From a virus, in the IMG/VR virus record IMGVR_UViG_3300045988_020849, positions 1 to 43,971 of that record: a stretch of DNA of 43,971 nt. The stretch is one strand, 5' to 3'. Made by a program: the position numbers and the translations under genes. This document shows, piece after piece, positions 9,559 through 43,971 of this stretch; position 1 is the first letter of the stretch, and each line of letters begins with the position of its first letter. The notes under the pieces were generated by a model that worked only from the letters and a program-made list of their open reading frames with translations, had not been told where the DNA came from and searched no databases.

Positions 9559-10596
9559 ATGAGTAATATTAAATCCGATATAATCAATGATATCACCGTT
9601 ACGATGTCCGTATATATTCAGGACAGAGAAGTCCTTGATGTATTGGAGCTTGTGTTGGCTAATGAGCTTATGAAGGTAAATGTCGAGGAGATCACGACTC
9701 TTCCGGCAGAAGTTAAAAGTAGCGTAGATCAGCGTAATGCTTATCTGGTGCAGCTCTTTATGATCCAGAAACGCCACCTAAAAAAGCGCACGATTGAGGC
9801 ATATATGGGATCGGTACGCCGCTTGGTGCTGGCTACAGGGAAACGTCTGGATCTTATCGACACGTTGGATATTGATTGGTATCTGGCACAATACGAGAAG
9901 CACAAAGGCGTGAGGACGGAACAGATCACGAACCGAACTTACAATAACGAGCGCCGGAATCTCTCTGAATTCTTTACGTGGATGCGGAAGTCAAAGATCA
10001 TACAGGACAACCCTGTAGATAATGTGGACGCGAAAAAGGTTGTTATGGGGAAAATCGACTACTATAGCCGGGAGGAGATCATTGAGCTGCGGGATGCGTG
10101 CAAAACAAAGCGTGATCGTGCCATTATCGAGGTATTCCGTTCCACGGGTGCGCGTGTAGGTGAGATCGCAGAGATCCGCCTGGATCAAGTGGATATGCAT
10201 ACCGGGGACATCCCGATCATTGGTGAGAAGGGCGGACGTGCCAGAACATTATATCTGGATGCAGAGGCGAGATATTATCTTGCAGCGTATCTTGATGAGA
10301 GGAAGGATAACAGCCCGTACCTCTTTACCCAGACCGTAGGTGCAAAGCGAGGGAGGATGGGGACGGCAACGTACCGGACTATAATGAGAAAAATCGGCAA
10401 GCGTGCGAAGATCCAGAGCCGTGTGTATCCGCACAAGATGCGTAAGACACTGGGAATGGATCTCAAGCAGCACGGACTTGATATCGGAATCATCCAAGAG
10501 ATCCTTGGGCACGCGTCACCGGCAGTTACAAGTATGTATTATGCTCAATCTACAACAGAGTCGTTGCGGGCGATAAGGCAGAGAATGAGCGCATAG
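9559..10596 (+). CDS. Tyrosine site-specific recombinase (XerC/D-like), not adjacent to attP
   Basis: Catalytic signature ARVGEIAEIRLDQVD, HKMRKTLG, LGHASPAVTSMYY. ATG 9559 is preceded by AAGGAGG; the track ORF is extended to 9481. Confidence 0.85.
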   Translation: MSNIKSDIINDITVTMSVYIQDREVLDVLELVLANELMKVNVEEITTLPAEVKSSVDQRNAYLVQLFMIQKRHLKKRTIEAYMGSVRRLVLATGKRLDLIDTLDIDWYLAQYEKHKGVRTEQITNRTYNNERRNLSEFFTWMRKSKIIQDNPVDNVDAKKVVMGKIDYYSREEIIELRDACKTKRDRAIIEVFRSTGARVGEIAEIRLDQVDMHTGDIPIIGEKGGRARTLYLDAEARYYLAAYLDERKDNSPYLFTQTVGAKRGRMGTATYRTIMRKIGKRAKIQSRVYPHKMRKTLGMDLKQHGLDIGIIQEILGHASPAVTSMYYAQSTTESLRAIRQRMSA

Positions 10597-29765: not shown

Positions 29766-32450
29766 ATGGGACAGGCTGACGGAACCATAGTAATTGATAC
29801 AACAATCACAGATGAGGGATTTGTAGCCGGAACGAAGGAAATGGAAACCGCCGCACGCCGCATGGCGGAGTCTGTCTCTGGAATCGGAGACAAAGCGAAA
29901 ACGGCGTTGCAGAAGCAGGCAAACGCATTCGCCAAGCTCAACAGCCAGTATGCAGAACAGACGCGGAAGGTGGAAACTCTTAAGGAAAAGGTGGATGCCC
30001 TTAGAGAAGAAAAAATTCCTACACAGGAGTACACCGACCTCAACAAAGAAATTGATTCCGTAAACAAAAAGCTTGATGCAGCGATCGAACGTGAAATCAG
30101 ATTCGTTGAGACCGGAGGAAAGCAGAATAGTAGGACCTTTAAAGGAATGGAATATGATATCGACATGCTGCGCGAGAAACTCGAAGAAGCGCAGAAGGCA
30201 AAAACAGCGTTGGAATCCTCTGGCGGATCATATATGTCTGGAGCTGATACAGAGTCAGGACAGAAAGTTGTAGCGCAGTACGCCGCAGCGCAGGCAGCAC
30301 TTGAGGATACCAACAATCGAGTGCGCACATCGTTTGATTCCCTGAAGGCAAGTGTAAAAGATTACGAAGATAAAGCAAAAAAAGCAACAAAATCCAGCGG
30401 AGGCTTGCAAAAAGGAATCGACAAAGCTGGCATGAGCTTCAAGAAAATGTTGAGCTATGCATTCGGTATCCGGTCCCTGTTTGCCCTCTTCAATCGCCTC
30501 CGGAGTGCTGTGGGAGAAGGAATGAAAAACCTTGTCCAGTATTCGGGGGACACAAACAACACAGTATCCGGGCTGATGTCCTCACTGACGCAGCTTAAAA
30601 ACGCACTTGCCACAGCGTTCGCCCCGATCCTTACGATGATCGCTCCGGCACTGAATACACTCATCAGCCTTTTGACCACGGCTGCCAATGCAGTAGCACA
30701 ATTTTTCTCGGCACTGACCGGCAAGAACACATTCGTGAAAGCCACAAAGGTGCAGGAGAATTATGCGTCCTCGTTGAAAAAAACAGGATCAGCAGCGAAG
30801 CAGGCAGAAAAAAGCCTTGCATCGTTCGATACGATCGAACAAATTGGATCGAAAAGCAAGGATTCCGGATCCGGCGGTGGAGGCAGTAGCACGTCCCCAC
30901 AAGACATGTTTACGACTGAACAGATCAGCTCCTCCATCAAAAACATGGCGGACACTATCAAAAAGCTGATCGCCGCAGAGGACTGGAAGGGAGTCGGAAA
31001 CTACATCGGTGCGCAGATCGGAACCGGCGTAAACTTTGCGATGGGAAAATTGGATCAGTTTCTTTCCACAACGAACTGGAAAGGAATCGGAACGGCGATC
31101 ACTGCCGGACTTACAGGATTCTTCTCCACGTTTAGCTGGAGCACACTCGGAAGTGTAGTTTCTCATTTCGTTTCCGGACTTGTGCAGCTCATCACAGGAC
31201 TGTTCCAAGGCGTTGACTGGCGCGCAATTCCTATGGGGCTCATCAATGCAATCGGGGGATTTCTTAAGGGATTCGACTATGCAAGCGTCTTTAGTTCGGT
31301 CGGAGAGCTGATCGGAACAGCGATTGCATCCGGAATAGATCTCCTGAAGGGACTCGGGGATGTACTCGCGAATGCGTGGGACAGTGTAGTTTCGTATTTC
31401 TCCGGATACATTGAAGCGGCCGGCGGAGATATCGTGCAGGGACTCTGGAACGGAATCATAAACGCACTCCGAAATGTCGGATCATGGATTGTGAACAACA
31501 TCTTCAAACCGTTTATCAATGGCTTCAAGTCTGCATTCGGAATTCACAGCCCGTCCACCGTCATGATGGAAATGGGGCAGTACCTCATGGAGGGACTCCG
31601 AAATGGAATCAGCAATTTCATTTCTTCCGTTATTGCGAAATTCGCGGAGATCAAGGATAAGATCATCGCTAAGTGGGACGAGACTAAGCAGAAGACACAG
31701 GAGAAATGGAGCAGCATTAAGAGCGGACTTGAAAGCACATGGACAGCGGTAAAAACATCCGCCAGTGAGAAGTTTCAGGCGATCAAGGAAACTGTATCAA
31801 CGCGCTGGAGCGAGACGAAAACCAGCACTGAGAGCGCATGGGGATCTATCAACAGCACACTTGGAACAAAGTGGGAGGAGATTCGGAGCAACGCAACGGC
31901 GAAATTCGCGGCGATCAAGGACAGTGTTGTAGCCGCATGGAACACGTTAAAATCGGAGACCAGCACAATATGGAATGGCATCTGGGGCGCGATGAAATCC
32001 GTCATCAACACAATCCTCGGCGGTGTGGAGTCGATGGTGAACGGTGTCATCAATGCGCTGAATAGGATGATCAGCGCACTTAACAATCTGAGCTTTGATA
32101 TTCCTGACTGGGTGCCGGGAATCGGCGGAGAATCCTTCGGACTGGACATTCCGACCGTAAGCAAGGTACATTTGCCGCGTCTGGCATCAGGTACCGTGGT
32201 TCCTCCTCGCGCCGGTGAGTTCGCGGCGATTCTGGGCGATAACAAACAGGAAACTGAGGTCGTTTCTCCGCTCAGTACAATGAAACAGGCACTTATGGAA
32301 GCACTCGCAGAGAGCGGAGTAGGCGGAAACCAGCAAGTCGTGATTCGCTTCGAGGGCAACCTTGCACAGCTTGGACGAGTACTGAAACCCGTAATTGATG
32401 CAGAAAACAACCGCGGAAGCGTGAGACTTGTAACAGGGGGAAACCGATGA
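29766..32450 (+). CDS. Tape measure protein
   Basis: 894 aa, coiled-coil N-terminus, Gly/Ala/Ser-rich hydrophobic central region. It is the longest gene in the tail module. Confidence 0.85.
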   Translation: MGQADGTIVIDTTITDEGFVAGTKEMETAARRMAESVSGIGDKAKTALQKQANAFAKLNSQYAEQTRKVETLKEKVDALREEKIPTQEYTDLNKEIDSVNKKLDAAIEREIRFVETGGKQNSRTFKGMEYDIDMLREKLEEAQKAKTALESSGGSYMSGADTESGQKVVAQYAAAQAALEDTNNRVRTSFDSLKASVKDYEDKAKKATKSSGGLQKGIDKAGMSFKKMLSYAFGIRSLFALFNRLRSAVGEGMKNLVQYSGDTNNTVSGLMSSLTQLKNALATAFAPILTMIAPALNTLISLLTTAANAVAQFFSALTGKNTFVKATKVQENYASSLKKTGSAAKQAEKSLASFDTIEQIGSKSKDSGSGGGGSSTSPQDMFTTEQISSSIKNMADTIKKLIAAEDWKGVGNYIGAQIGTGVNFAMGKLDQFLSTTNWKGIGTAITAGLTGFFSTFSWSTLGSVVSHFVSGLVQLITGLFQGVDWRAIPMGLINAIGGFLKGFDYASVFSSVGELIGTAIASGIDLLKGLGDVLANAWDSVVSYFSGYIEAAGGDIVQGLWNGIINALRNVGSWIVNNIFKPFINGFKSAFGIHSPSTVMMEMGQYLMEGLRNGISNFISSVIAKFAEIKDKIIAKWDETKQKTQEKWSSIKSGLESTWTAVKTSASEKFQAIKETVSTRWSETKTSTESAWGSINSTLGTKWEEIRSNATAKFAAIKDSVVAAWNTLKSETSTIWNGIWGAMKSVINTILGGVESMVNGVINALNRMISALNNLSFDIPDWVPGIGGESFGLDIPTVSKVHLPRLASGTVVPPRAGEFAAILGDNKQETEVVSPLSTMKQALMEALAESGVGGNQQVVIRFEGNLAQLGRVLKPVIDAENNRGSVRLVTGGNR

Positions 32451-32845
32451 ACCATTTTGCAGTATTTACCGTGGATGGAGTGGAATATGATGTCAATGTC
32501 ATAAAGCTCTCAAGAAATGCAAAAGTGACGGATACGGACAACTCCGGGCGCACACTTGATGGCGTAATGCATCGGGACATCATCGGAACATACTACAATT
32601 ACACGCTTGAAGTAGCCGCAAAAAAAGGAAAGCATCAGGATTACGACAGACTGTATGATGTGGTAAGTGCTCCGGTAGATAGCCATGATCTGGTGTTCCC
32701 GTACGGACAGGAAACATTATCATTTAAGGCATACATCACAGAAGCAAACGACACCATGATCCGCAGAGAGGGCGTTAATTTGTGGGGCTATGATGATAAT
32801 CTTAAGCTCAACTTTGTAGCGATGGAACCGCAGAGAAGGAGATAA
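32447..32845 (+). CDS. Distal tail protein-like
   Basis: 132 aa directly after the tape measure, with an ATGA overlap. Confidence 0.45.
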   Translation: MNHFAVFTVDGVEYDVNVIKLSRNAKVTDTDNSGRTLDGVMHRDIIGTYYNYTLEVAAKKGKHQDYDRLYDVVSAPVDSHDLVFPYGQETLSFKAYITEANDTMIRREGVNLWGYDDNLKLNFVAMEPQRRR

Positions 32846-32846
32846 C

Positions 32847-35054
32847 ATGAAGTGGGATGTGTCAATATCAGCGAATGGGGAAGAGTATTATTCCTCCACA
32901 AGTGAGCTCACAAATCAGGAAAATCCGATTCCTGGGTATGCCTATCTCCTTCCGGGCTATTCCCTTCTGAATGGCAGCTACAAAAACGCTCCGGACAGGA
33001 TCCCGGAGGGGAAAAGTGGGTATACCAGTAGCCAGATATCAGACACGAACGGAGACTTTGCAGACCCTCCGATTCTTCGGATCCATTTTGATAGGCTCAA
33101 GACTTCCAGAGGAATCACACTGAATTTTAACGATATTTCCGGAGACTATGCGGACAAAGTTAATATTAAGTGGTATAAAAGCGGTGTTCTTGTGGAAAAC
33201 ATGGATTTTTCGCCGACATCAAGTGTGTATTTTTGCGAAGCATCTGTAAAGCTCCATAACGAGGTGGAAATCACGTTTCTTCACACTTCGCGACCGTACC
33301 GCCATATTTGGATTTCGAAGATCACAAACTACAGGCTTGTGGACGCTGGAGGACTCAAGATCGTATATGGCGATATCGCCCTCGGAGCGAAAGAAAACGC
33401 GGAGTACAGCGTGAATGATGGTGGGCGGCTGGGCAATCTGAAAAAGAAATATTCCTTCCCTGATGCGGCACTGAACTATCCGGGGTATTCCCTGCTGAAT
33501 GAGGGGTATAAGAACTATGATGTTTTCCCGGAAGTCGGATATATATCTCGGCTGGTATCAGATGAGAACGGGAATTTCCCGCACGGAACCATCCGCCCCA
33601 CGGCTGGTTTAGTTCCACATCCCGGACTGTATCCAGGTAGCGAATATGAGTTGCCTACACTGACCGCGACATTTTCAGATAAATACAGCAGTCAGGGCAT
33701 CTCTCTGGTGTTCAACGATCATTCCGGAGACTATTGCTCTCAACTCACTATCACATGGTATCGTGACGGTGAAACATTATCCTCCGAGACGTTCCAACCG
33801 GACGGATATGAGTATTTCTGTTATCATCCGGAGGAATATTACAATAAGATCACGATCGCCTTCGAAAAGACATCCAGACCATTCAGACCGGTGTTCCTGT
33901 CTGATATCCAATATGGGCTTGGGCGTACATTCTTGGATGATGAAGCGAAGAATGTAGATTGCTTTATCGAGATGAGCCCGATCAGTGAAGAGCTCAGCAT
34001 CAACACATTAAGCTTCACGATCCGGAGCAAGTCGAACATCGCATTCAACTTCCAGCGCCGCCAGCAAATGAAATTATATTTCGATGAAAATATTATCGGA
34101 ATTTTCTATTTGAAATCCGGGAAGCGTGTAAGCAAAACGGACTACGAGGTTAATACTGAGGATGCTGTGGGACTTTTAGACACGACAGACTTTATGGGCG
34201 GCATATACAATAATGAGCCAGTCAAAAACGTCATAGCGGCGATTTTCGAAGGACAGGGGATTGATTATTTCCTTGATCAGACCTTGGAAAATTTGACAGT
34301 AAGCGGATATCTTCCAGTCTGCCGCAGGCGTGATGCGCTCGCTCAAGTTGCTTTTGCGATCGGGGCATCCGTCAACACCGCGTATGATCTCAATCTGTAT
34401 ATCTATCCTCGGAATACAGGCATCATAAAGCCGCATATGGAACTCCATCCGGGAAAAGGACTTGTACCGGGAATGAGAGTCACGAAGCAGAACTTTACGA
34501 AGTCCAACACTCTATCTGGGCTGACGATCGACCACAGCGACATCACCACTGGTGCAAAGGTATACGCGCACACTTACGTGAAATCCTCGGAATCGGAGGA
34601 ACTCTATAAAGATACTCTGAATGGGACAGCTCAGATTACGTTCTCGGAAGCCCATTATGATCTTGCAATCACCGGTGGCGCGATCAGCACGTCCGGAGAT
34701 AACTGGGCGATCATTACCGGAACCGGTAGCGAAGTAGTTCTGACTGGCAAGAAATACACCCACATGACAACCCTGTATGAGAAAGTGAACCCTAACATAT
34801 CGCAGAATGAGAATCTCGTGGAAGTGAAAGACGCGACACTCGTAAACCCTCAGAATGTGAACGAAGTTCTTAATCGTGTATACGATTATTACAGCAGCAA
34901 CGAGTCTGTTTCCTGCCGTGTCTTACTCAATGAGGAAGAGTTGGGGGATATTGTTTCAGTAGATACAGACTTTGACGGGACACGGATCGGAGCCATTAAA
35001 AAGATGGATTTCACATTCACACGGGAAATGACAGCGGAGGTAGAGATAGGATGA
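32847..35054 (+). CDS. Tail-associated / baseplate protein with a tandem duplicated N-terminal domain
   Basis: 735 aa. Repeat 1 is aa 36-159 (PGYSLLNGSYKN...GITLNFNDISGDYADKVNIKWYKSG...TSRPYRHIWISKI). Repeat 2 is aa 212-355 (PGYSLLNEGYKN...GISLVFNDHSGDYCSQLTITWYRDG...TSRPFRPVFLSDI). Confidence 0.65.
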   Translation: MKWDVSISANGEEYYSSTSELTNQENPIPGYAYLLPGYSLLNGSYKNAPDRIPEGKSGYTSSQISDTNGDFADPPILRIHFDRLKTSRGITLNFNDISGDYADKVNIKWYKSGVLVENMDFSPTSSVYFCEASVKLHNEVEITFLHTSRPYRHIWISKITNYRLVDAGGLKIVYGDIALGAKENAEYSVNDGGRLGNLKKKYSFPDAALNYPGYSLLNEGYKNYDVFPEVGYISRLVSDENGNFPHGTIRPTAGLVPHPGLYPGSEYELPTLTATFSDKYSSQGISLVFNDHSGDYCSQLTITWYRDGETLSSETFQPDGYEYFCYHPEEYYNKITIAFEKTSRPFRPVFLSDIQYGLGRTFLDDEAKNVDCFIEMSPISEELSINTLSFTIRSKSNIAFNFQRRQQMKLYFDENIIGIFYLKSGKRVSKTDYEVNTEDAVGLLDTTDFMGGIYNNEPVKNVIAAIFEGQGIDYFLDQTLENLTVSGYLPVCRRRDALAQVAFAIGASVNTAYDLNLYIYPRNTGIIKPHMELHPGKGLVPGMRVTKQNFTKSNTLSGLTIDHSDITTGAKVYAHTYVKSSESEELYKDTLNGTAQITFSEAHYDLAITGGAISTSGDNWAIITGTGSEVVLTGKKYTHMTTLYEKVNPNISQNENLVEVKDATLVNPQNVNEVLNRVYDYYSSNESVSCRVLLNEEELGDIVSVDTDFDGTRIGAIKKMDFTFTREMTAEVEIG

Positions 35055-35464
35055 GCGTTTTTGAGACTCTGATAACAGACCGCACGGCGGACGATGTAAC
35101 AAACCGCACGGAAAAAGGCTGCATTGCTTATACAGACCTTAACCGTGTAGAAACAGCCTGCCGTGATCTTGCGGACATCCTGTTTGTGGACATCAATACA
35201 AAAACAGACTGGACAATGCGAGATTTCCGTACCGACAGCGATATGCAGCGGATCCGCGGCAACATACAGGCGCTGAGAGAGGCATACTTCACAAAGCCAA
35301 CGACCCCGGCAACGCCGCAGAGAATCGAATATCAGTCAGTTACGGAAGCCAACAATATTGAACAGATCCTTGCGGATATCTATGAGATGTATCAGTCTTC
35401 CATGTCCGGGGCGCGGCGGCTTGCGTTCCGGCTGGGAACAAAGCCAATCGGAGACAGGAGGTAG
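35051..35464 (+). CDS. Tail-module hypothetical protein (137 aa)
   Basis: Track ORF with an ATGA overlap. Confidence 0.5.
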   Translation: MSVFETLITDRTADDVTNRTEKGCIAYTDLNRVETACRDLADILFVDINTKTDWTMRDFRTDSDMQRIRGNIQALREAYFTKPTTPATPQRIEYQSVTEANNIEQILADIYEMYQSSMSGARRLAFRLGTKPIGDRR

Positions 35465-35467
35465 CAC

Positions 35468-35908
35468 ATGGCATTAAAAACGAACTATAAGGATGACATC
35501 TATGAGGGGAACAGAAAATACAATCAGGTGAGTAATTCGGACGGGACAATTTCCCTTGTGGATCAGACCAATTACACGCAGGAGGGGGACCCATTTAAGG
35601 CTGAGGACATCAACGCGACAAATATGGCGATCAACAGGCTCTATGATTTGCGTACCGGCACATTGACGGCTGGAGGATGGACCACAAGTGCACCATACAC
35701 GCAGACGATCACTGTTGAGGGACTTAAGGACACGGACCGCCCGGATATCTCCTGCACCGATGACCTGACATCTAAGGCAAGCAAAAAAGCACGCCGGAAG
35801 GAATGGAACAAGGTGGATCGGATCGTTACCGGAGACGGACAGCTCACGGCATACTGCAATTTCGACAAGCCGACCCTTGACTTGCCTATAGAAATTCACA
35901 GATCATAA
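35468..35908 (+). CDS. Tail fibre-associated protein (146 aa)
   Basis: Track ORF with a GGAGG RBS, in the tail fibre region. Confidence 0.5.
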   Translation: MALKTNYKDDIYEGNRKYNQVSNSDGTISLVDQTNYTQEGDPFKAEDINATNMAINRLYDLRTGTLTAGGWTTSAPYTQTITVEGLKDTDRPDISCTDDLTSKASKKARRKEWNKVDRIVTGDGQLTAYCNFDKPTLDLPIEIHRS

Positions 35909-35919
35909 GGAGGAACAGC

Positions 35920-36507
35920 ATGGAAGAATTAGAGAAAAACGAGACCAGCACACAGGCAGAAGAAAATACAGTTTCCCTCGCATCCGCACAGGCTCTTGCT
36001 GATGCACTTGCAAAAATCGAAGCTTACACCCCTACCACTTGGGTAGACAACTCTTCTCCGGACATTGATGCGGAGCATCTGAATAAACCGGAACAGGCAA
36101 TCAAACGTGTCACGGATGCGCTCAATTCCGCCGTTGATGTAATCAAGGATTTGCAGTCTCAGGTAACAAAGAACGCCGGAGCTATCTCGGATGTAAATAA
36201 CAATTTGAGTAATACGAATGATAAGGTCACTCAATTGTATAGTGATTTACCGATTATAGGGAAATTCACCAATAAAAAAAACAAAGACATCATTAAAATC
36301 GGCTCTGTCGTAAAATCTCGCTCTGTCGTATGTGTATTTCCCAGATATAATACCCTTACTACTGTTAGGTGTATATATCCTTCACTTGAAATTAGTGCTG
36401 GAGAAGATCAATTTCAGCTATTCGCATGGGATACCAATACGCAAAACGATTCCACATCCACAAACTTAGAAGGATACTACATTGTAATGCCAATGTTGTC
36501 TAAGTAA
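35920..36507 (+). CDS. Tail fibre protein with an exchangeable C-terminal domain (currently expressed cassette)
   Basis: 195 aa. The constant part is aa 1-91. Codons VNNNLS (36193-36210) coincide with the left inverted repeat. The C-terminal coding part is visibly AT-rich. Confidence 0.65.
   Translation: MEELEKNETSTQAEENTVSLASAQALADALAKIEAYTPTTWVDNSSPDIDAEHLNKPEQAIKRVTDALNSAVDVIKDLQSQVTKNAGAISDVNNNLSNTNDKVTQLYSDLPIIGKFTNKKNKDIIKIGSVVKSRSVVCVFPRYNTLTTVRCIYPSLEISAGEDQFQLFAWDTNTQNDSTSTNLEGYYIVMPMLSK
36193..36210 (+). repeat. Left inverted repeat gtaaataacaatttgagt
   Basis: Read directly. In frame as V-N-N-N-L-S in 35920..36507. Confidence 0.95.
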
Positions 36508-36533
36508 TAGCTTTGCTTTCGTTCTCGTAGCTA

Positions 36534-36902
36534 TCAAATATAAGCAGCCATGCCACATATATATGTCAACTTTGAGGCATTAGCTCCTGTTGACATACTA
36601 ATACTTATTCCTGAAATCTCAAGAACTACGGGCGTATAGGCTGCTCTGGCCCATTCACCAACATCCCTGCCTTGTATGACTATATGTGCAGATGTAGCAG
36701 GCCGCAATTTCTCTGGTATATTGCTTGCTATAATATCATTTCCTGTAAGAGCTTTTGCCTTAATAGCGATGCTTAGAACTTTTACATTACCCACACGATA
36801 TATCCTTAGGTAGTAATCTGCGGCAGGATCATAATAATCTGGATTGAGTAAATCAGTCAGATCATTAACTTCCACACTCAAATTGTTATTTACGTAACAC
36901 AT
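36534..36902 (-). CDS. Alternative tail-fibre C-terminal cassette (silent in this orientation)
   Basis: The ORF begins MCY then VNNNLS encoded by the right inverted repeat. No RBS precedes its ATG. Inversion would fuse it in frame to aa 1-91 of the fibre gene. Confidence 0.55.
   Translation of the reverse strand: MCYVNNNLSVEVNDLTDLLNPDYYDPAADYYLRIYRVGNVKVLSIAIKAKALTGNDIIASNIPEKLRPATSAHIVIQGRDVGEWARAAYTPVVLEISGISISMSTGANASKLTYICGMAAYI
36876..36893 (-). repeat. Right inverted repeat (reverse complement gtaaataacaatttgagt)
   Basis: Read directly: plus strand actcaaattgttatttac. Confidence 0.95.
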
Positions 36903-36921
36903 TTTAATTCAAAAAAGAAAG

Positions 36922-37019
36922 GAAAGAGATTGTTTGGCAGGCGTTGCGGCTCCTGCATCTCTTTTAGCCACTGCGGCGCATGGTTGCAACGGAATCTACC
37001 GCCTCAAACAATCTCTTTC
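36922..37019. repeat. Long hairpin / 15-bp perfect inverted repeats flanking 68 bp
   Basis: gaaagagattgtttg (36922-36936) and caaacaatctctttc (37005-37019). The GC-rich interior has further pairing (gttgc/gcaac). Confidence 0.8.
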
Positions 37020-37072
37020 GAATTCATTATAACAGAACGATTTTTTATTGTAAAGAAAGGAGATATTATACT

Positions 37073-38149
37073 ATGGCAGATGCCTTTTTAAAGCAGTATG
37101 GCGGATCCGGTACTGGATCCGATGACTGCACAGCAAAACGAAATCAGGTACTCGCAGGCGTGACGGCCGTCACCAGCGACAGTGATGATGAAGCACTGAC
37201 CGGCACAATGCCGGAGCGTGGAAAACTGTCCAGAACACTTTCCGCTGGGGAGTCCGTGACATTATCAGAAGGACATTACGCCGGAGGCACGGTGTCCGCC
37301 CGGAGCTTGGCAAGCCAGACCGGTGGAGCAACGGCAGAAGACCGATATGTCAAGAAAGGGCTGACATACTGGAAAGATGGGGTGTTACGAACCGGAACAA
37401 TGGAAACCCAGTCCGCAATATCTTTTAGCGCAGCCGCTCTCTCTCATAATACGATCCGCGTCAGCTGGAAGAACCCGGCAAAGGGACCGTGGGAAGGTAT
37501 CCGCATTCAGATGTCTACTGACGGAACACCGGGGGCGAGCGGCGGAACAAGGGTTTACACTGGGGCTGGAAGCAATCCGAACCAAGCTAATGGGAATAAC
37601 TATGCCGATATTACCGGATTGAAGCCACTTACAAAGTACTATTTTTCCTGCACCAGCTTTTGTACGGGACTTGATGATGGAATACAAGCAGATGTTAGCG
37701 CGACTACTACCCATGTATATCTATACAATAGGGGAAACAATATCGCAGGAATTTCTGTTAGTGATGAATACACTTACAATGGGGGAATTACATTTGCATC
37801 AAATGCTATTGTTTATAGTAAAGTTGGATCCAGTCCTTGGACGGGCGGAACATTGGTAACTAATGGTAAGTGGGATCTTAGCGCATTTTCTAAATTTAAA
37901 ATGAGATGCAAAATCTCATCAGCACATTATGATCAATTTTACGTGAATGTTTTTGGAAAACAAAACAGCGACTTTGATCTTTTGTCAAATGATAAAGTTA
38001 GTCTGTCATATAGTGAGATGGTTTATGAGTCCCATTTAAGAAGTACAGCAAAGAGCTTTAATGATCGCATTTATTTCCAACTGTATAGCACAAATGGAAC
38101 CGCAGTATCCGGTATACTCGGAGAAATTTATGAGATTTGGCTTGAATAA
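37073..38149 (+). CDS. Tail fibre / receptor-binding protein with a fibronectin type III-like domain
   Basis: ATG 37073 follows AAGGAG. IRVSWKNPAKGPWEGIRIQMSTDG...ITGLKPLTKYYFSCTSF is FN3-like. AT-rich C-terminal domain. Track ORF start 36980 is an extension. Confidence 0.6.
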   Translation: MADAFLKQYGGSGTGSDDCTAKRNQVLAGVTAVTSDSDDEALTGTMPERGKLSRTLSAGESVTLSEGHYAGGTVSARSLASQTGGATAEDRYVKKGLTYWKDGVLRTGTMETQSAISFSAAALSHNTIRVSWKNPAKGPWEGIRIQMSTDGTPGASGGTRVYTGAGSNPNQANGNNYADITGLKPLTKYYFSCTSFCTGLDDGIQADVSATTTHVYLYNRGNNIAGISVSDEYTYNGGITFASNAIVYSKVGSSPWTGGTLVTNGKWDLSAFSKFKMRCKISSAHYDQFYVNVFGKQNSDFDLLSNDKVSLSYSEMVYESHLRSTAKSFNDRIYFQLYSTNGTAVSGILGEIYEIWLE

Positions 38150-38160
38150 AGGAGAAAATC

Positions 38161-38292
38161 ATGAATGATATTGCATTATGCTGTGACAAGCTCAGTAGTG
38201 ATGATTCTGACACTGATTTTTGGAACATGGAGGATAAGATTATTGATGCCTATAAAAAGTGGCAGAATATATGCTTTGCAGTAGAGGAGTGA
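38161..38292 (+). CDS. Small acidic protein (43 aa), not a membrane protein
   Basis: ORF below the track cutoff, with an AAAGGAG RBS. MNDIALCCDKLSSDDSDTDFWNMEDKIIDAYKKWQNICFAVEE. Confidence 0.45.
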   Translation: MNDIALCCDKLSSDDSDTDFWNMEDKIIDAYKKWQNICFAVEE

Positions 38293-38296
38293 TCAT

Positions 38297-39016
38297 ATGA
38301 GAGATATTACATTGTGCCATCCGCGGCTTCAGAGGCTTGCGGCGGCACTTGTGCAGAAATGCGCAGAACAGGGCTTGAAGATCAAGATCGGCGAAACCTT
38401 CCGCACTGTGGCGGAGCAAGACGCATTTTATGCCCAGGGAAGAACAAAACCGGGCAACAAGGTGACGAACGCTCGCGGATCCAGTTACAGCTCCTTCCAT
38501 CAGTGGGGAACCGCCTTTGACATCTACCGCGCTGACGGGAAGGGCGCTTACTATGATAACGACGGCTTCTTTTCCCGTGTAGGTGCGATCGGAGTTTCCC
38601 TCGGACTTGAGTGGGGCGGTAACTGGAAATCTATCCCGGACAGGCCACACTTCCAGTTGCCAGACTGGGGCAGTAGTACAAAGAAAATCAAAGCTCTATA
38701 TGCCACTCCACAGGCTTTCATGGCAACATGGGAGAAAGAGACAGCGAATCTGCCGGAAGGCTGGGTACACGACGCTCACGGCTGGTGGTGGCGGAATGCG
38801 GACGGGTCATACCCCAAACTGTGTTGGAAAACCATCAATCACCATTATTACCTCTTCGGTGCGTCCGGCTATATGCTGACCGGCTGGGTACAGTTTGACG
38901 GCACCAAGACCGGTACGGGCGACTGGTTCTATCTTGAGGAGTCCGGCGAATACGAGGGTGCGTGTTGGCACGCGAAGGGAAATAACGGTGCTATGGAACG
39001 GTGGTATGTGGAGTGA
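38297..39016 (+). CDS. Endolysin: M15 (VanY-like) peptidase domain plus cell-wall-binding repeats
   Basis: SSFHQWGTAFD and DRPHFQ zinc-ligand motifs. C-terminal GW/WY repeats (GWVHDAHGWWWRNADGSY, YYLFGASGYMLTGWVQFDG, WFYLEESGEYEG). Confidence 0.85.
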   Translation: MRDITLCHPRLQRLAAALVQKCAEQGLKIKIGETFRTVAEQDAFYAQGRTKPGNKVTNARGSSYSSFHQWGTAFDIYRADGKGAYYDNDGFFSRVGAIGVSLGLEWGGNWKSIPDRPHFQLPDWGSSTKKIKALYATPQAFMATWEKETANLPEGWVHDAHGWWWRNADGSYPKLCWKTINHHYYLFGASGYMLTGWVQFDGTKTGTGDWFYLEESGEYEGACWHAKGNNGAMERWYVE

Positions 39017-39043
39017 TTTTCGTGTTGCATTTCGTGTTGCATA
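39017..39043 (+). repeat. attP arm-type repeat, copy 1 (two tandem TTCGTGTTGCA units)
   Basis: 22-nt gtgttgcatttcgtgttgcata (39022-39043) recurs exactly at 39239-39260. Confidence 0.75.
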
Positions 39044-39175
39044 GTGCTTTAAGTATAGCAAGAAAGCATAAAATCATTATAGATAACTACAATTAATAAA
39101 ACCATGTAAGTCGCATAAAATAAGGGGATTCCAAGAAAACCCAGTATTTTCAAGGAATCCCTTTATATCCATATA

Positions 39176-39200
39176 ACCGGTTCAAGTCCGGTCACCGGCA
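39176..39200 (+). other. attP core: 3' fragment of a tRNA gene (T arm + acceptor strand, probably tRNA-Leu)
   Basis: ACCGG-TTCAAGT-CCGGT-CACCGGC-A. No matching 5' acceptor strand (GCCGGTG) lies upstream, so this is a fragment, as expected for a tRNA-targeting integrase. Confidence 0.65.
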
Positions 39201-39204
39201 TTGA

Positions 39205-39238
39205 AAGAAGCTTGTAAATACAGGCTTCTTTTTATTTT
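39205..39238 (+). terminator. Rho-independent terminator following the tRNA fragment
   Basis: aagaagcttg pairs with caggcttctt (10 bp, 1 mismatch) around loop taaata, then tttatttt. Confidence 0.65.
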
Positions 39239-40308
39239 GTGTTGCATTTCGTGTTGCATAACTCTGAAAAATGCGTGTTTGCTATCTCATTCATCGACAT
39301 GGTTTTGTCATCCATTGTATGGCGATACACTTCTTTTAGGGTTCCATCGTTCCCCCATCCCCCTCGCTTCATGATATAGGCATCCGGGATCCCCAATGCA
39401 TGTTGGATGGATGCGGAGTAGTGCCGGAGATCGTGGAAGCGGAACAGCTCCATTTTATTTTTCTTGAGAAGATCATGAAACTTCCTTGTGATCTGATTCG
39501 GATCCAGCGAAACGATCCTTCCCTTTTTCCCCTTTATCTTTTCGATTACAAAGTCCGGAAAATCAATATAGCGATCACCGGCGTAAGTTTTCGGCGTTTT
39601 TATGATCCATTGACGTTCCGTGTTCAAGACCATATTCTTCGTAATGTGGACCATGTTTCCGGAGATATCGTTGGATGTCAGCGCACCGATCTCCCCGCGC
39701 CGCATCGGACCGAATGCCGCAAGCAGGATCGGGATCTCCAACTCTGTCCCTTTTGCACACTCCATAAGACGCTGTATCTCCGCGTCTGTAGGCACGTAGA
39801 TCTTCGGGCGTACTTTTTCCGGGAGCTTGGTGTTCAAAGCGAAATTCGGACGATACACGCCTAAAACAGCAGCGATTAGTCCATGAGCGTTACGCACTGT
39901 CTTGGGTGCGTGATTTGCGGCAAAGGCGTTGATTGCAACCTGCACCTGCTCCTGCGTCAATGTAGGCACCTTCTGATTCATTAGCTCCTGCATGTCCTTC
40001 TTCCGGGTCCGGCGGTAGTCCATAACCGTTCTGGGTGATAGCAGGGACAACCGCTCATCAGTGTAACGGTCGATCGCTTCCCCCAACGTGAGATTCTGCA
40101 CACTCGTTGCATTCTCCTTCTCAGCGGCCCATTGAGCCGCCATCTGTTCCGCAATACGTTTTCCCTTCGGCCCAGGCACATCCGAGGTGAAGCTCTTGTA
40201 AATACGTTTGTCCTTCTTTTTTTCGGTCTTCGGATCAATAGATGTCTCAAGGTGTGAGAATATCTGGCACCTCCATGATCCAGACGGTAATTTTTTTGCT
40301 GTTGCCAT
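39232..40308 (-). CDS. int: Tyrosine integrase
   Basis: 358 aa with MRRGEIGAL, HDLRHYSAS and GGWGNDGTLKEVYRH catalytic motifs. Adjacent to attP. AAGGAGG RBS. Confidence 0.9.
   Translation of the reverse strand: MATAKKLPSGSWRCQIFSHLETSIDPKTEKKKDKRIYKSFTSDVPGPKGKRIAEQMAAQWAAEKENATSVQNLTLGEAIDRYTDERLSLLSPRTVMDYRRTRKKDMQELMNQKVPTLTQEQVQVAINAFAANHAPKTVRNAHGLIAAVLGVYRPNFALNTKLPEKVRPKIYVPTDAEIQRLMECAKGTELEIPILLAAFGPMRRGEIGALTSNDISGNMVHITKNMVLNTERQWIIKTPKTYAGDRYIDFPDFVIEKIKGKKGRIVSLDPNQITRKFHDLLKKNKMELFRFHDLRHYSASIQHALGIPDAYIMKRGGWGNDGTLKEVYRHTMDDKTMSMNEIANTHFSELCNTKCNTK
39235..39260 (+). repeat. attP arm-type repeat, copy 2 (inside the 3' end of int)
   Basis: Exact 22-nt copy of 39022-39043. It encodes the integrase C-terminal CNTKCNTK on the minus strand. 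Confidence 0.75.
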
Positions 40309-43747: not shown

Positions 43748-43971
43748 AGAAATATGAATTAACAGCCGAAAGCATTGTGAAGTTCGGCAGGACACTTTTT
43801 AGAATTAAGGCTCTGGTAGCCTTTGGAAATGTTGAAGAGGGAGAGCTTGGAGGATTTGTCGAGCAAGAAGGAAACCTCGCTCAGTCTGGAAAAGCGTGGG
43901 TTAGCGGAAACGCGTGGGTTAGCGGAAACGCGGTGGTTAGCGGAAACGCGGTGGTTAGCGGAAACGCGGTG
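43744..43971 (+). CDS. N-terminal part of the hexapeptide-repeat protein (3' truncated by the window edge; continues at nt 2)
   Basis: ATGA overlap with the upstream gene. MKKYELTAESIVKFGRTLFRIKALVAFGNVEEGELGGFVEQEGNLAQSGKAWVSGNAWVSGNAVV... Confidence 0.75.
   Translation, partial: MKKYELTAESIVKFGRTLFRIKALVAFGNVEEGELGGFVEQEGNLAQSGKAWVSGNAWVSGNAVVSGNAVVSGNAV
43888..43971 (+). repeat. Tandem 18-nt repeats (5' part of the array that continues at nt 1)
   Basis: Units ggaaaagcgtgggttagc, ggaaacgcgtgggttagc and ggaaacgcggtggttagc x2 plus a partial unit. Confidence 0.9.

Follow-up and report, generated by a model that had tools for sequence, protein, structure and literature searches.

A two-cassette tail-fibre module between in-frame inverted repeats: a probable shufflon family in phages of gut Clostridia

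The DNA analysed here, hereafter called the window, is the IMG/VR virus record IMGVR_UViG_3300045988_020849 over its full length of 43,971 nt. At positions 36193-36893 it contains a tail-fibre locus in which two alternative C-terminal domains, one joined to the fibre gene and one stored in the opposite direction, lie between short inverted repeats that are read in frame. From sequence comparison we consider it likely that this segment is a two-cassette module of a tail-fibre shufflon family in phages of gut Clostridia (Lachnospiraceae-type hosts); recombination at the repeats, called arms below, is just as probably the function of the structure. The window represents the recombinase-less (orphan) form of this tyrosine-recombinase shufflon family. 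The family has apparently not been described so far; in the literature on Clostridia phages, no description of such a shufflon was found. That the window phage itself still flips the segment at a measurable rate is a closer question, on which we lean slightly towards the negative.

Structure of the module

The left arm (36193-36210, plus strand, GTAAATAACAATTTGAGT) and the right arm (36876-36893, minus strand) are perfect inverted copies of each other, identical at 18 of 18 positions and 665 nt apart; we refer to this repeat as site 2. It contains a 16-nt core (AAATAACAATTTGAGT, 36195-36210 in the left arm, plus strand) that encodes N-N-N-L-S and is invariant in relatives. In the fibre gene (35920-36507, plus strand, 195 aa), which is preceded by a strong canonical ribosome-binding site (RBS; taaggaggaacagcATG), the six arm codons V-N-N-N-L-S are residues 92-97. 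They follow a constant part of 91 aa (35920-36192, plus strand), named constW, and precede the expressed C-terminal domain, cassette A (36211-36507, plus strand, 98 aa). The opposed open reading frame (ORF; 36534-36902, minus strand, 122 aa) begins with a stub of three codons (ATG-TGT-TAC, M-C-Y; 36894-36902, minus strand), continues with VNNNLS and ends with the silent C-terminal domain, cassette B (36534-36875, minus strand, 113 aa plus stop, VEVNDLTDLLNPDYYDP...). No RBS precedes the stub (ctttcttttttgaattaaaATG). The stop codons of the two ORFs converge on a spacer of 26 nt (36508-36533).

Cassette A is itself a hybrid, running from NTNDKV through a second kind of site into a distal domain beginning PIIGKF... 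This second site, site 1 (ACTCAATTGTATAGTGATTT, 36229-36248, plus strand), is read as T-Q-L-Y-S-D-L. It is present in the window as a single copy, where no copy is expected by chance, and has no inverted partner there. The G+C content falls from about 0.48-0.53 to 0.33-0.42 over approximately 36100-37100. The initial annotation had pointed out most of this anatomy, and its description holds: the perfect repeats, their common frame in both ORFs with 91 residues before the arm and 113 after it in the opposed ORF, the start lacking an RBS, the stop-to-stop arrangement and the AT-richness of the segment were all recovered.

It had further argued that such a repeat pair is unlikely to arise by chance. 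In shuffled versions of the window, the 18-mer itself is expected 0.01 times when up to two mismatches are allowed, and a perfect inverted 18-mer pair no more than 2 kb apart occurred in one of 60 dinucleotide shuffles (mean 0.017). The argument stands in its direction, and the statistics of the window alone are not overwhelming. A chance origin of the arm pair is unlikely yet not negligible as long as only the window is considered; the comparative data decide.

A recurrent joint in related loci

Related loci were collected by pattern and protein searches and viewed with 10 kb on either side. The core AAATAACAATTTGAGT was found in 67 distinct arm contexts, and the N-N-N-L-S frame is kept in every one of them. 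These contexts comprise 36 arms within long ORFs, which we call expressed, and 31 stub arms. Between 2 and 59 codons separate a stub arm from the nearest stop behind it, and several of the flank classes contain no start codon; the short stubs and missing starts imply that silent cassettes are not translatable alone. Among the long ORFs with the core, at least four mutually unrelated families of constant N-termini are represented, including constW, a 230-aa family (const2), one ending in ...GKALKDLIDT and one that is collagen-like. By their outer flanks the stubs form about six classes, and several different cassettes are found behind each of them; the M-C-Y class is common to the window, L042, L248, L356, L358 and L360. 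Across all contexts the core is unchanged at every synonymous position. Hence, it is the DNA that is conserved, beyond the peptide.

In public proteins, an identical 97-aa constW N-terminus carries at least 15 different C-terminal cassettes. The carrier proteins show phage tail-fibre repeats and collagen repeats, and one cassette contains an H-type lectin domain.

Judged by its occurrence in relatives, cassette B is a real fibre tip. It forms the C-terminus after V/T-NNNLS on four other backbones (P0002/P0008, P0004, P0009, P0012) and is joined to others via TQLYSDL. It is expressed in L255 (P0002), L266 and L399, and silent in the window, L047, L396 and L397. Seven distinct DNA versions of the cassette are known to us, which show few synonymous or non-synonymous differences; all six full-length versions are intact at 113 codons, and the seventh (L157) is cut by the end of the locus. 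A structure model built from an alignment of 24 sequences had a pLDDT (predicted local distance difference test) score of 41.

The reach of the searches differed. Matches to the bare 18-mer came mostly from an unrelated prophage family in which it is present by chance, and the matches listed for the 16-mer likewise included chance ones. No match was obtained when positions 34500-39200 were compared by megablast with phage GenBank records, nor when GTDB genomes were scanned for the constant N-terminus. The pattern scans of the viral collection were incomplete: in contig 024228 they gave one of two arms and missed a class-i stub that is seen in L248, and their negatives are therefore not to be read as absence.

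Reversal and exchange of segments

Both orientations of such a segment occur among relatives of the window. Positions 4276-5126 of L248 correspond in reverse to 5132-4282 of L253 at 99.77% identity, with flanks that are co-linear at only 75-85%; L248 expresses a cassette beginning NSRKTV... and stores one beginning NIGTVT..., and in L253 the roles are converse. Neither of these two loci has an adjacent recombinase. The second reversed pair consists of L047 (4139-5048) and L255 (9524-8615), at 99.56% identity between flanks of 91-94%. Here, L047 stores cassette B, which L255 expresses, and L255 in turn stores the cassette that is expressed in L047.

Exchange of whole segments is equally apparent. 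Four different cassette pairs occupy this slot in siblings of the window phage that share an identical 358-aa downstream protein and flanks of 99.6-99.8% identity; the homology of these siblings to the window ends at 36212/36213 and restarts at 36876. Four modules in recombinase-less backbones of such similarity indicate recent and repeated recombination at the arms in this lineage. The modules also travel further: L415 has the whole segment (36193-36891 of the window, 97.3%) behind an unrelated const2-type constant gene and between unrelated flanks, and L047 matches 36243-36891 at 98.8% in a foreign backbone. In L047, the distal PIIGKF... domain of cassette A is joined via ATKDDL, containing the KDDL motif, at the place where the window has TQLYSDL. 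This reflects a third in-frame joint within the cassettes, a (T/S)-K-(D/S/N)-D-L motif with conserved DNA (CAAAG...GATTT; CAAAGGATGATTTA or CAAAGTCGGATTTG). L157 and L360 differ at this K-D/S-D-L joint by a swap of the distal halves of two opposed cassettes.

The reversed and exchanged segments support what had been proposed from the window alone, namely that a constant N-terminus and two opposed cassettes recombine at the repeats. The comparison of related genomes for orientation succeeded in part: it gave the two reversed pairs in relatives, but no inverted form of the window phage in public assemblies.

Some loci have lost parts of the structure. In L045 (9815-9860; also in L246) the right arm is decayed (GCTCGTATTGTTATTTTAC), and an extra gene lies between the stub and the gene of the fn3 protein. 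In L249/L046 (12213-12777) the silent cassette and the right arm are wholly deleted.

Recombinases of sister loci

The link to a recombinase comes from sister loci. L263 (ENA ERZ1745405 NODE_249, 45,018 bp) is 100% identical to positions 32920-36891 of the window and leaves the homology right after the 16-nt core, at 36891/36892. Its stub reads M-YSDLNT-TNNNLS, combining site 1 and site 2, and is followed at once by a tyrosine recombinase gene, which thus adjoins cassette B. The gene belongs to a family of Xer-like tyrosine recombinases that we call rec076. Genes of this family lie between inverted arms in L157/L396, L076 and L397-L399, each with three to four cassettes and four to seven site copies, and also in the myophage loci L266-L270, so that both siphophage and myophage tail modules are concerned. 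The family is also present in genomes of Lachnospiraceae (Clostridium sp., Hungatella hathewayi, Lacrimispora). More than 2,500 relatives of the recombinase were found at E < 1e-30, a count that is not specific to shufflon recombinases.

In these loci, site 1 (ACTCAATTGTATAGTGATTTG, T-Q-L-Y-S-D-L) is the in-frame repeat that flanks the rec076 recombinases. Of 30 genome loci with a rec076 gene, 18 have site 1 beside it, and 11 of these 18 have two copies or more. In the IMG/VR shufflons, sites 1 and 2 often form one composite arm, TQLYSDL-NT-TNNNLS. The two sites are alike: in the coding direction they share 10 of 15 positions (.ATA...ATTTGA.T) when aligned by eye. The module of the window is itself found in such arrays, since 36227-36891 is 99.4% identical to 5786-5122 of L396 and to 2893-3564 of L397. 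Relative to the recombinase gene it is downstream in L396 and upstream in L397, with its orientation reversed between the two, and its bounds are the single site 1 in cassette A and the core of the right site 2. Compared with the rec076/TQLYSDL shufflons, the window has the shared cassettes, but neither inverted pairs of site 1 nor a rec076 gene. Many contigs with rec076 genes measure only about 1.2 kb or break off at the shufflon, which is what assembly would yield if several arrangements coexisted within a sample.

Could the exchange do without a site-specific enzyme? In that case, NNNLS would be a conserved linker at a domain boundary, and segments would be exchanged through short homology by an ERF annealing protein or by the RecA of the host. 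The window encodes an ERF-family protein, the loci with site 2 alone have no adjacent recombinase, and the break points cannot be mapped within the arms. Moreover, relaxed homologous exchange is reported to be driven by Rad52-like phage recombinases (PMC3945230). Against this stands the fact that only 16-18 nt are shared between unrelated flanks at both module ends when the window is compared with L415, L047 and L396. Homologous recombination usually needs a longer match than this to be efficient. Dozens of independent joints are bounded by the same short motifs, the core is kept even in untranslated stubs, and the sister site 1, with its 10 of 15 positions in common with site 2, is found side by side with the gene of a dedicated tyrosine recombinase. 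We therefore regard exchange through short homology as very improbable, and continue with recombination at specific sites.

Candidate enzymes in the window

The initial annotation had stated that a serine invertase is missing and that the only spare recombinase is of the tyrosine type. Both statements proved correct. No match to PF00239 or PF07508 was found, and hence no serine recombinase domain, in the 73 ORFs of the window; the same search was negative for 46 neighbours of 14 related loci. In addition to the prophage integrase (39232-40308), a tyrosine recombinase as well, the window encodes an Xer-like tyrosine recombinase at 9559-10596 (plus strand, alternative start 9481), which adjoins a Dcm methyltransferase gene about 26 kb from the arms. 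Since a cis recombinase is missing, any flipping in the window needs an enzyme acting in trans, for which the Xer-like protein is a candidate.

The closest solved structures to this protein are XerC-like, XerA and XerD. It is 30% identical to rec076 over residues 5-315 of the 331-aa rec076 query, and motifs read by eye from the alignment are the usual catalytic ones (ARVGE, GEKGGR, HKMRKT, LGHAS...MYY). The likeness of sites 1 and 2 makes a paralogous enzyme for a paralogous site plausible. The exact protein, with the start at 9559, is present in six contigs. The gene occurs together with intact arm pairs in the window, 016427, 021287, 027152 and 041437, and with a decayed arm in 050311. It is not listed for 024228, 055288, 022168 and 018157, where absence means little because the scans are incomplete. 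Terminase relatives did not recover the same contigs, as the genomes are mosaic. Altogether, the Xer-like protein may tentatively be named as the enzyme, an assignment that we consider possible and rather doubtful.

The integrase was also considered as an invertase and rejected. A distance of 2.3 kb separates it from the right arm, and integrases are the sole recombinase type near several loci of the constW type. Its att core, however, is the 3' end of a tRNA gene (...CCGGTTCAAGTCCGGTCACCGGCA, in the window up to 39215) and unrelated to the arms. In loci of other backbones with the same arms (L255, L026, L014, L149) no integrase is nearby, and comparison of the protein with the shufflon recombinases gave no match at 1e-10. 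The chance that it doubles as the invertase is practically negligible.

Weighing the evidence for inversion

What is more difficult is the interpretation of the module in the window phage itself, and a number of results speak against an active switch. The segments of the reversed pairs are far more similar than their flanks; this proves recent transfer of the segment at the arms in either orientation, but not necessarily flipping in place. From the window, the junctions of the inverted form are predicted to be ...ATCTCGGAT-arm-GTGGAAGTT and ...ATGTGTTAC-arm-AATACGAAT. None of the eight predicted inverted products of the window phage and three siblings was present among approximately 15 billion proteins, and neither a protein nor a junction combining constW with cassette B was found in public proteins or in the metagenome collection; as the latter holds a single copy of the normal junction, the negative result for the junction has little power. 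The exact fibre protein of the window phage occurs in 22 contigs, and cassette A is the expressed one in all eight of these that were displayed. Silent cassettes are frameshifted or shortened in some relatives (L358, L149, L014), which indicates weak selection on the silent copies in some lineages.

The same holds for the enzyme. The window has no recombinase adjacent to the module (36894-37072) and no gene of the rec076 family, and in 14 other loci with site 2 alone no recombinase is nearby except the prophage integrase. Site 2 alone was never found next to a rec076-family gene, the family being tied to site 1. As for the Xer-like genes, no arms were found within 3 kb of them in 80 loci. The gene is accessory, being present in 11 of 80 terminase relatives, and it also occurs in L045, whose right arm is decayed.

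One explanation for these observations could be that the module is a frozen relic, imported recently from a shufflon similar to L263 and put out of action when another flank took the place of the one with site 1 and the recombinase. Cassette B would then be a passenger, with rare exchange between phages. Such a history would account for the absence from the window of the cis recombinase that its sibling L263 possesses, for the site 1 without inverted partner and for the lack of an inverted form in assemblies and protein sets. Relatives with a decayed arm or silent cassette (L045; L358, L149) or with a deleted silent cassette (L249/L046) fit as well. The state of the module is less easily reconciled with a relic: the arms are still identical at 18 of 18 positions and cassette B is intact. 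The four modules in the backbones of 99.6-99.8% identity all have the same recombinase-less flank, and the reversed pair L248/L253 likewise involves loci without an adjacent recombinase. On balance a relic appears unlikely, and a module that recombines at its arms remains the preferred interpretation.

Proposed mechanism

The constant N-terminus of the fibre ends in an in-frame DNA site, AAATAACAATTTGAGT, followed by an exchangeable, presumably receptor-binding, C-terminal domain. Cassette B is stored in reverse behind the inverted copy of the site, without a usable translation start of its own. According to our model, a crossover within the two 16-nt cores would flip the segment in place and fuse the constant part in frame to cassette B; alternatively, two phages could trade their whole segments, whichever way round these are inserted. 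In the sister loci, the reaction partner would be the Xer-like, armless tyrosine recombinase within the cassette array, with ACTCAATTGTATAGTGATTTG as its own repeat. The window phage has either lost a cis recombinase gene or never acquired one. An enzyme in trans might be supplied by its own Xer-like paralogue (9559-10596) or by the shufflon recombinase of a co-resident prophage.

A wider hypothesis is that site 2 marks portable, recombinase-free tip modules that are flipped and exchanged in trans by tyrosine recombinases encoded elsewhere, such that the siphophages and myophages of one community would share a pool of receptor-binding domains. We put this forward as a speculation that is more likely wrong than right. 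If true, the exchange with the pool would be a natural form of recombinase-mediated cassette exchange between two inverted in-frame sites.

Genomic context

The ends of the window overlap in tandem 18-nt repeats (AAACGCGGTGGTTAGCGG and variants; 1-110 and 43880-43971), which correspond to a six-residue period in the protein. The overlap indicates that the window is the complete, circularly permuted genome of a temperate siphophage. An ORF with a hexapeptide-repeat tail crosses the junction of the two ends.

The fibre gene is located in the siphophage tail module, 3' of the tape measure gene (29766-32450) and two further tail genes (32447-32845 and 32847-35054), which are followed by two small genes (35051-35464 and 35468-35908). 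Beyond the module lie the genes for an fn3 protein (37073-38149) and an endolysin (38297-39016), and on the minus strand the integrase, a tyrosine recombinase (39232-40308). The attP core (39190-39215) is the 3' end of the tRNA gene mentioned above. Integrated copies (L260, L264, L353, L355) run on into azlC/azlD of the host, and two of them, L260 and L353, diverge from the window at 39215. Exact matches of both azlC/azlD proteins are annotated as 'MULTISPECIES ... [Eubacteriales]'.

Within the fn3 gene, the G+C content drops half-way from about 0.55-0.58 to 0.33-0.40, the C-terminal half being 37600-38149. L046 and L008 align to its first 270-600 nt only. The drop and the partial alignment of these relatives suggest that this half is also exchanged between phages; it is a possible second swapped module, here without inverted repeats.

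Between the module and the fn3 gene, a skipping-rope RNA (Rfam RF02924) is encoded on the minus strand at 36929-37012, oriented toward the stub. The match scores 48.9 bits against a gathering score of 36.7 (E = 3e-10), and the outer stem is a perfect 15-nt inverted repeat (36922-36936 and 37005-37019). The RNA has its own promoter (37054 to 37026), which is near consensus (TTTACA-17-TATAAT with TG), and its own terminator; the U-run 3' of the RNA stops just before the ATG of the stub. It is also present in the siblings L356, L358 and L360, and was not found in the other 15 related loci that were scanned. Skipping-rope RNAs are an orphan class to which no function has been assigned (PMC5737381). 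Here it probably shields cassette B from read-through. As a component of the switch it was rejected, because it is confined to the M-C-Y flank class.

Significance and comparison with known systems

Tail fibres are an enriched target of programmed inversions (PMC9881135), and our data suggest that the present system is widespread among the phages of abundant gut Clostridia. An exchange of the tip would probably alter which bacteria the virus attaches to. If the system is active, temperate gut phages could change or hedge their host range without mutation, and both host prediction and strain tracking from metagenomes would become harder. The in-frame junctions, and perhaps the recombinases, could be used to engineer receptor-binding domains in phages of gut anaerobes that are hard to culture.

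Tail-fibre switching by DNA inversion is textbook knowledge for the phages Mu and P1, which use serine invertases. To our knowledge, switching of phage fibres by tyrosine recombinases has been reported only for prophages of Bifidobacterium and Eggerthella. The module resembles the G segment of Mu (Gin), the C segment of P1 (Cin) and the Min system of p15B in its constant fibre N-terminus, its opposed variable C-termini, the inverted repeats within coding sequence and the in-frame fusion. Unlike these systems, which depend on a serine invertase, the window encodes no such enzyme, its segment contains no co-inverted chaperone gene (U/U'), and the length is 0.7 kb as compared to 3-4 kb. The gix and cix sites are 26 bp long with dyad symmetry, and inversion there involves a Fis-dependent enhancer within the recombinase gene. 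By eye, the 16-nt core is asymmetric and appears unlike these sites.

With the shufflon of R64 and other IncI plasmids (Rci, sfx, PilV), the family shares the use of a tyrosine recombinase that switches the C-terminal domain of an adhesin, as well as multiple short asymmetric sites in which one side and the core are conserved. The multi-cassette arrays with an adjoining recombinase resemble L396-L399. The R64 system, however, belongs to a plasmid pilus and has another site sequence; furthermore, Rci is inversion-only, whereas the deleted silent cassette of L249 hints at deletions in the phage family.

A closely similar architecture has been published for Rin, a shufflon in prophages of Bifidobacterium (Mavrich et al. 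2018, PMC6109161), and the comparison covers this architecture and the sequence of the sites. In both systems, a constant N-terminus of a receptor-binding protein is combined with alternative C-terminal cassettes, and a short asymmetric repeat before each cassette is the point at which constant and variable parts are fused. An armless XerD-like tyrosine recombinase lies by the cassettes; here, this applies to L263, L157/L396, L076, L266 and L397-L399, but not to the window. The hosts differ at the phylum level, being Actinomycetota for Rin and Bacillota (Eubacteriales) here, and the rix sequence (TTCCCTAACCC) is unrelated to AAATAACAATTTGAGT and ACTCAATTGTATAGTGATTTG. In contrast to Rin, the sites described here lie in frame and encode conserved peptide motifs, at least two and perhaps three site classes are nested (the third at K-D/S-D-L), and the modules circulate among unrelated siphophage and myophage backbones. 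The closest parallel to the window is a second, simpler bifidophage inversion of about 500 bp, which likewise has no flanking recombinase; its authors proposed that the invertase is supplied in trans (PMC6109161).

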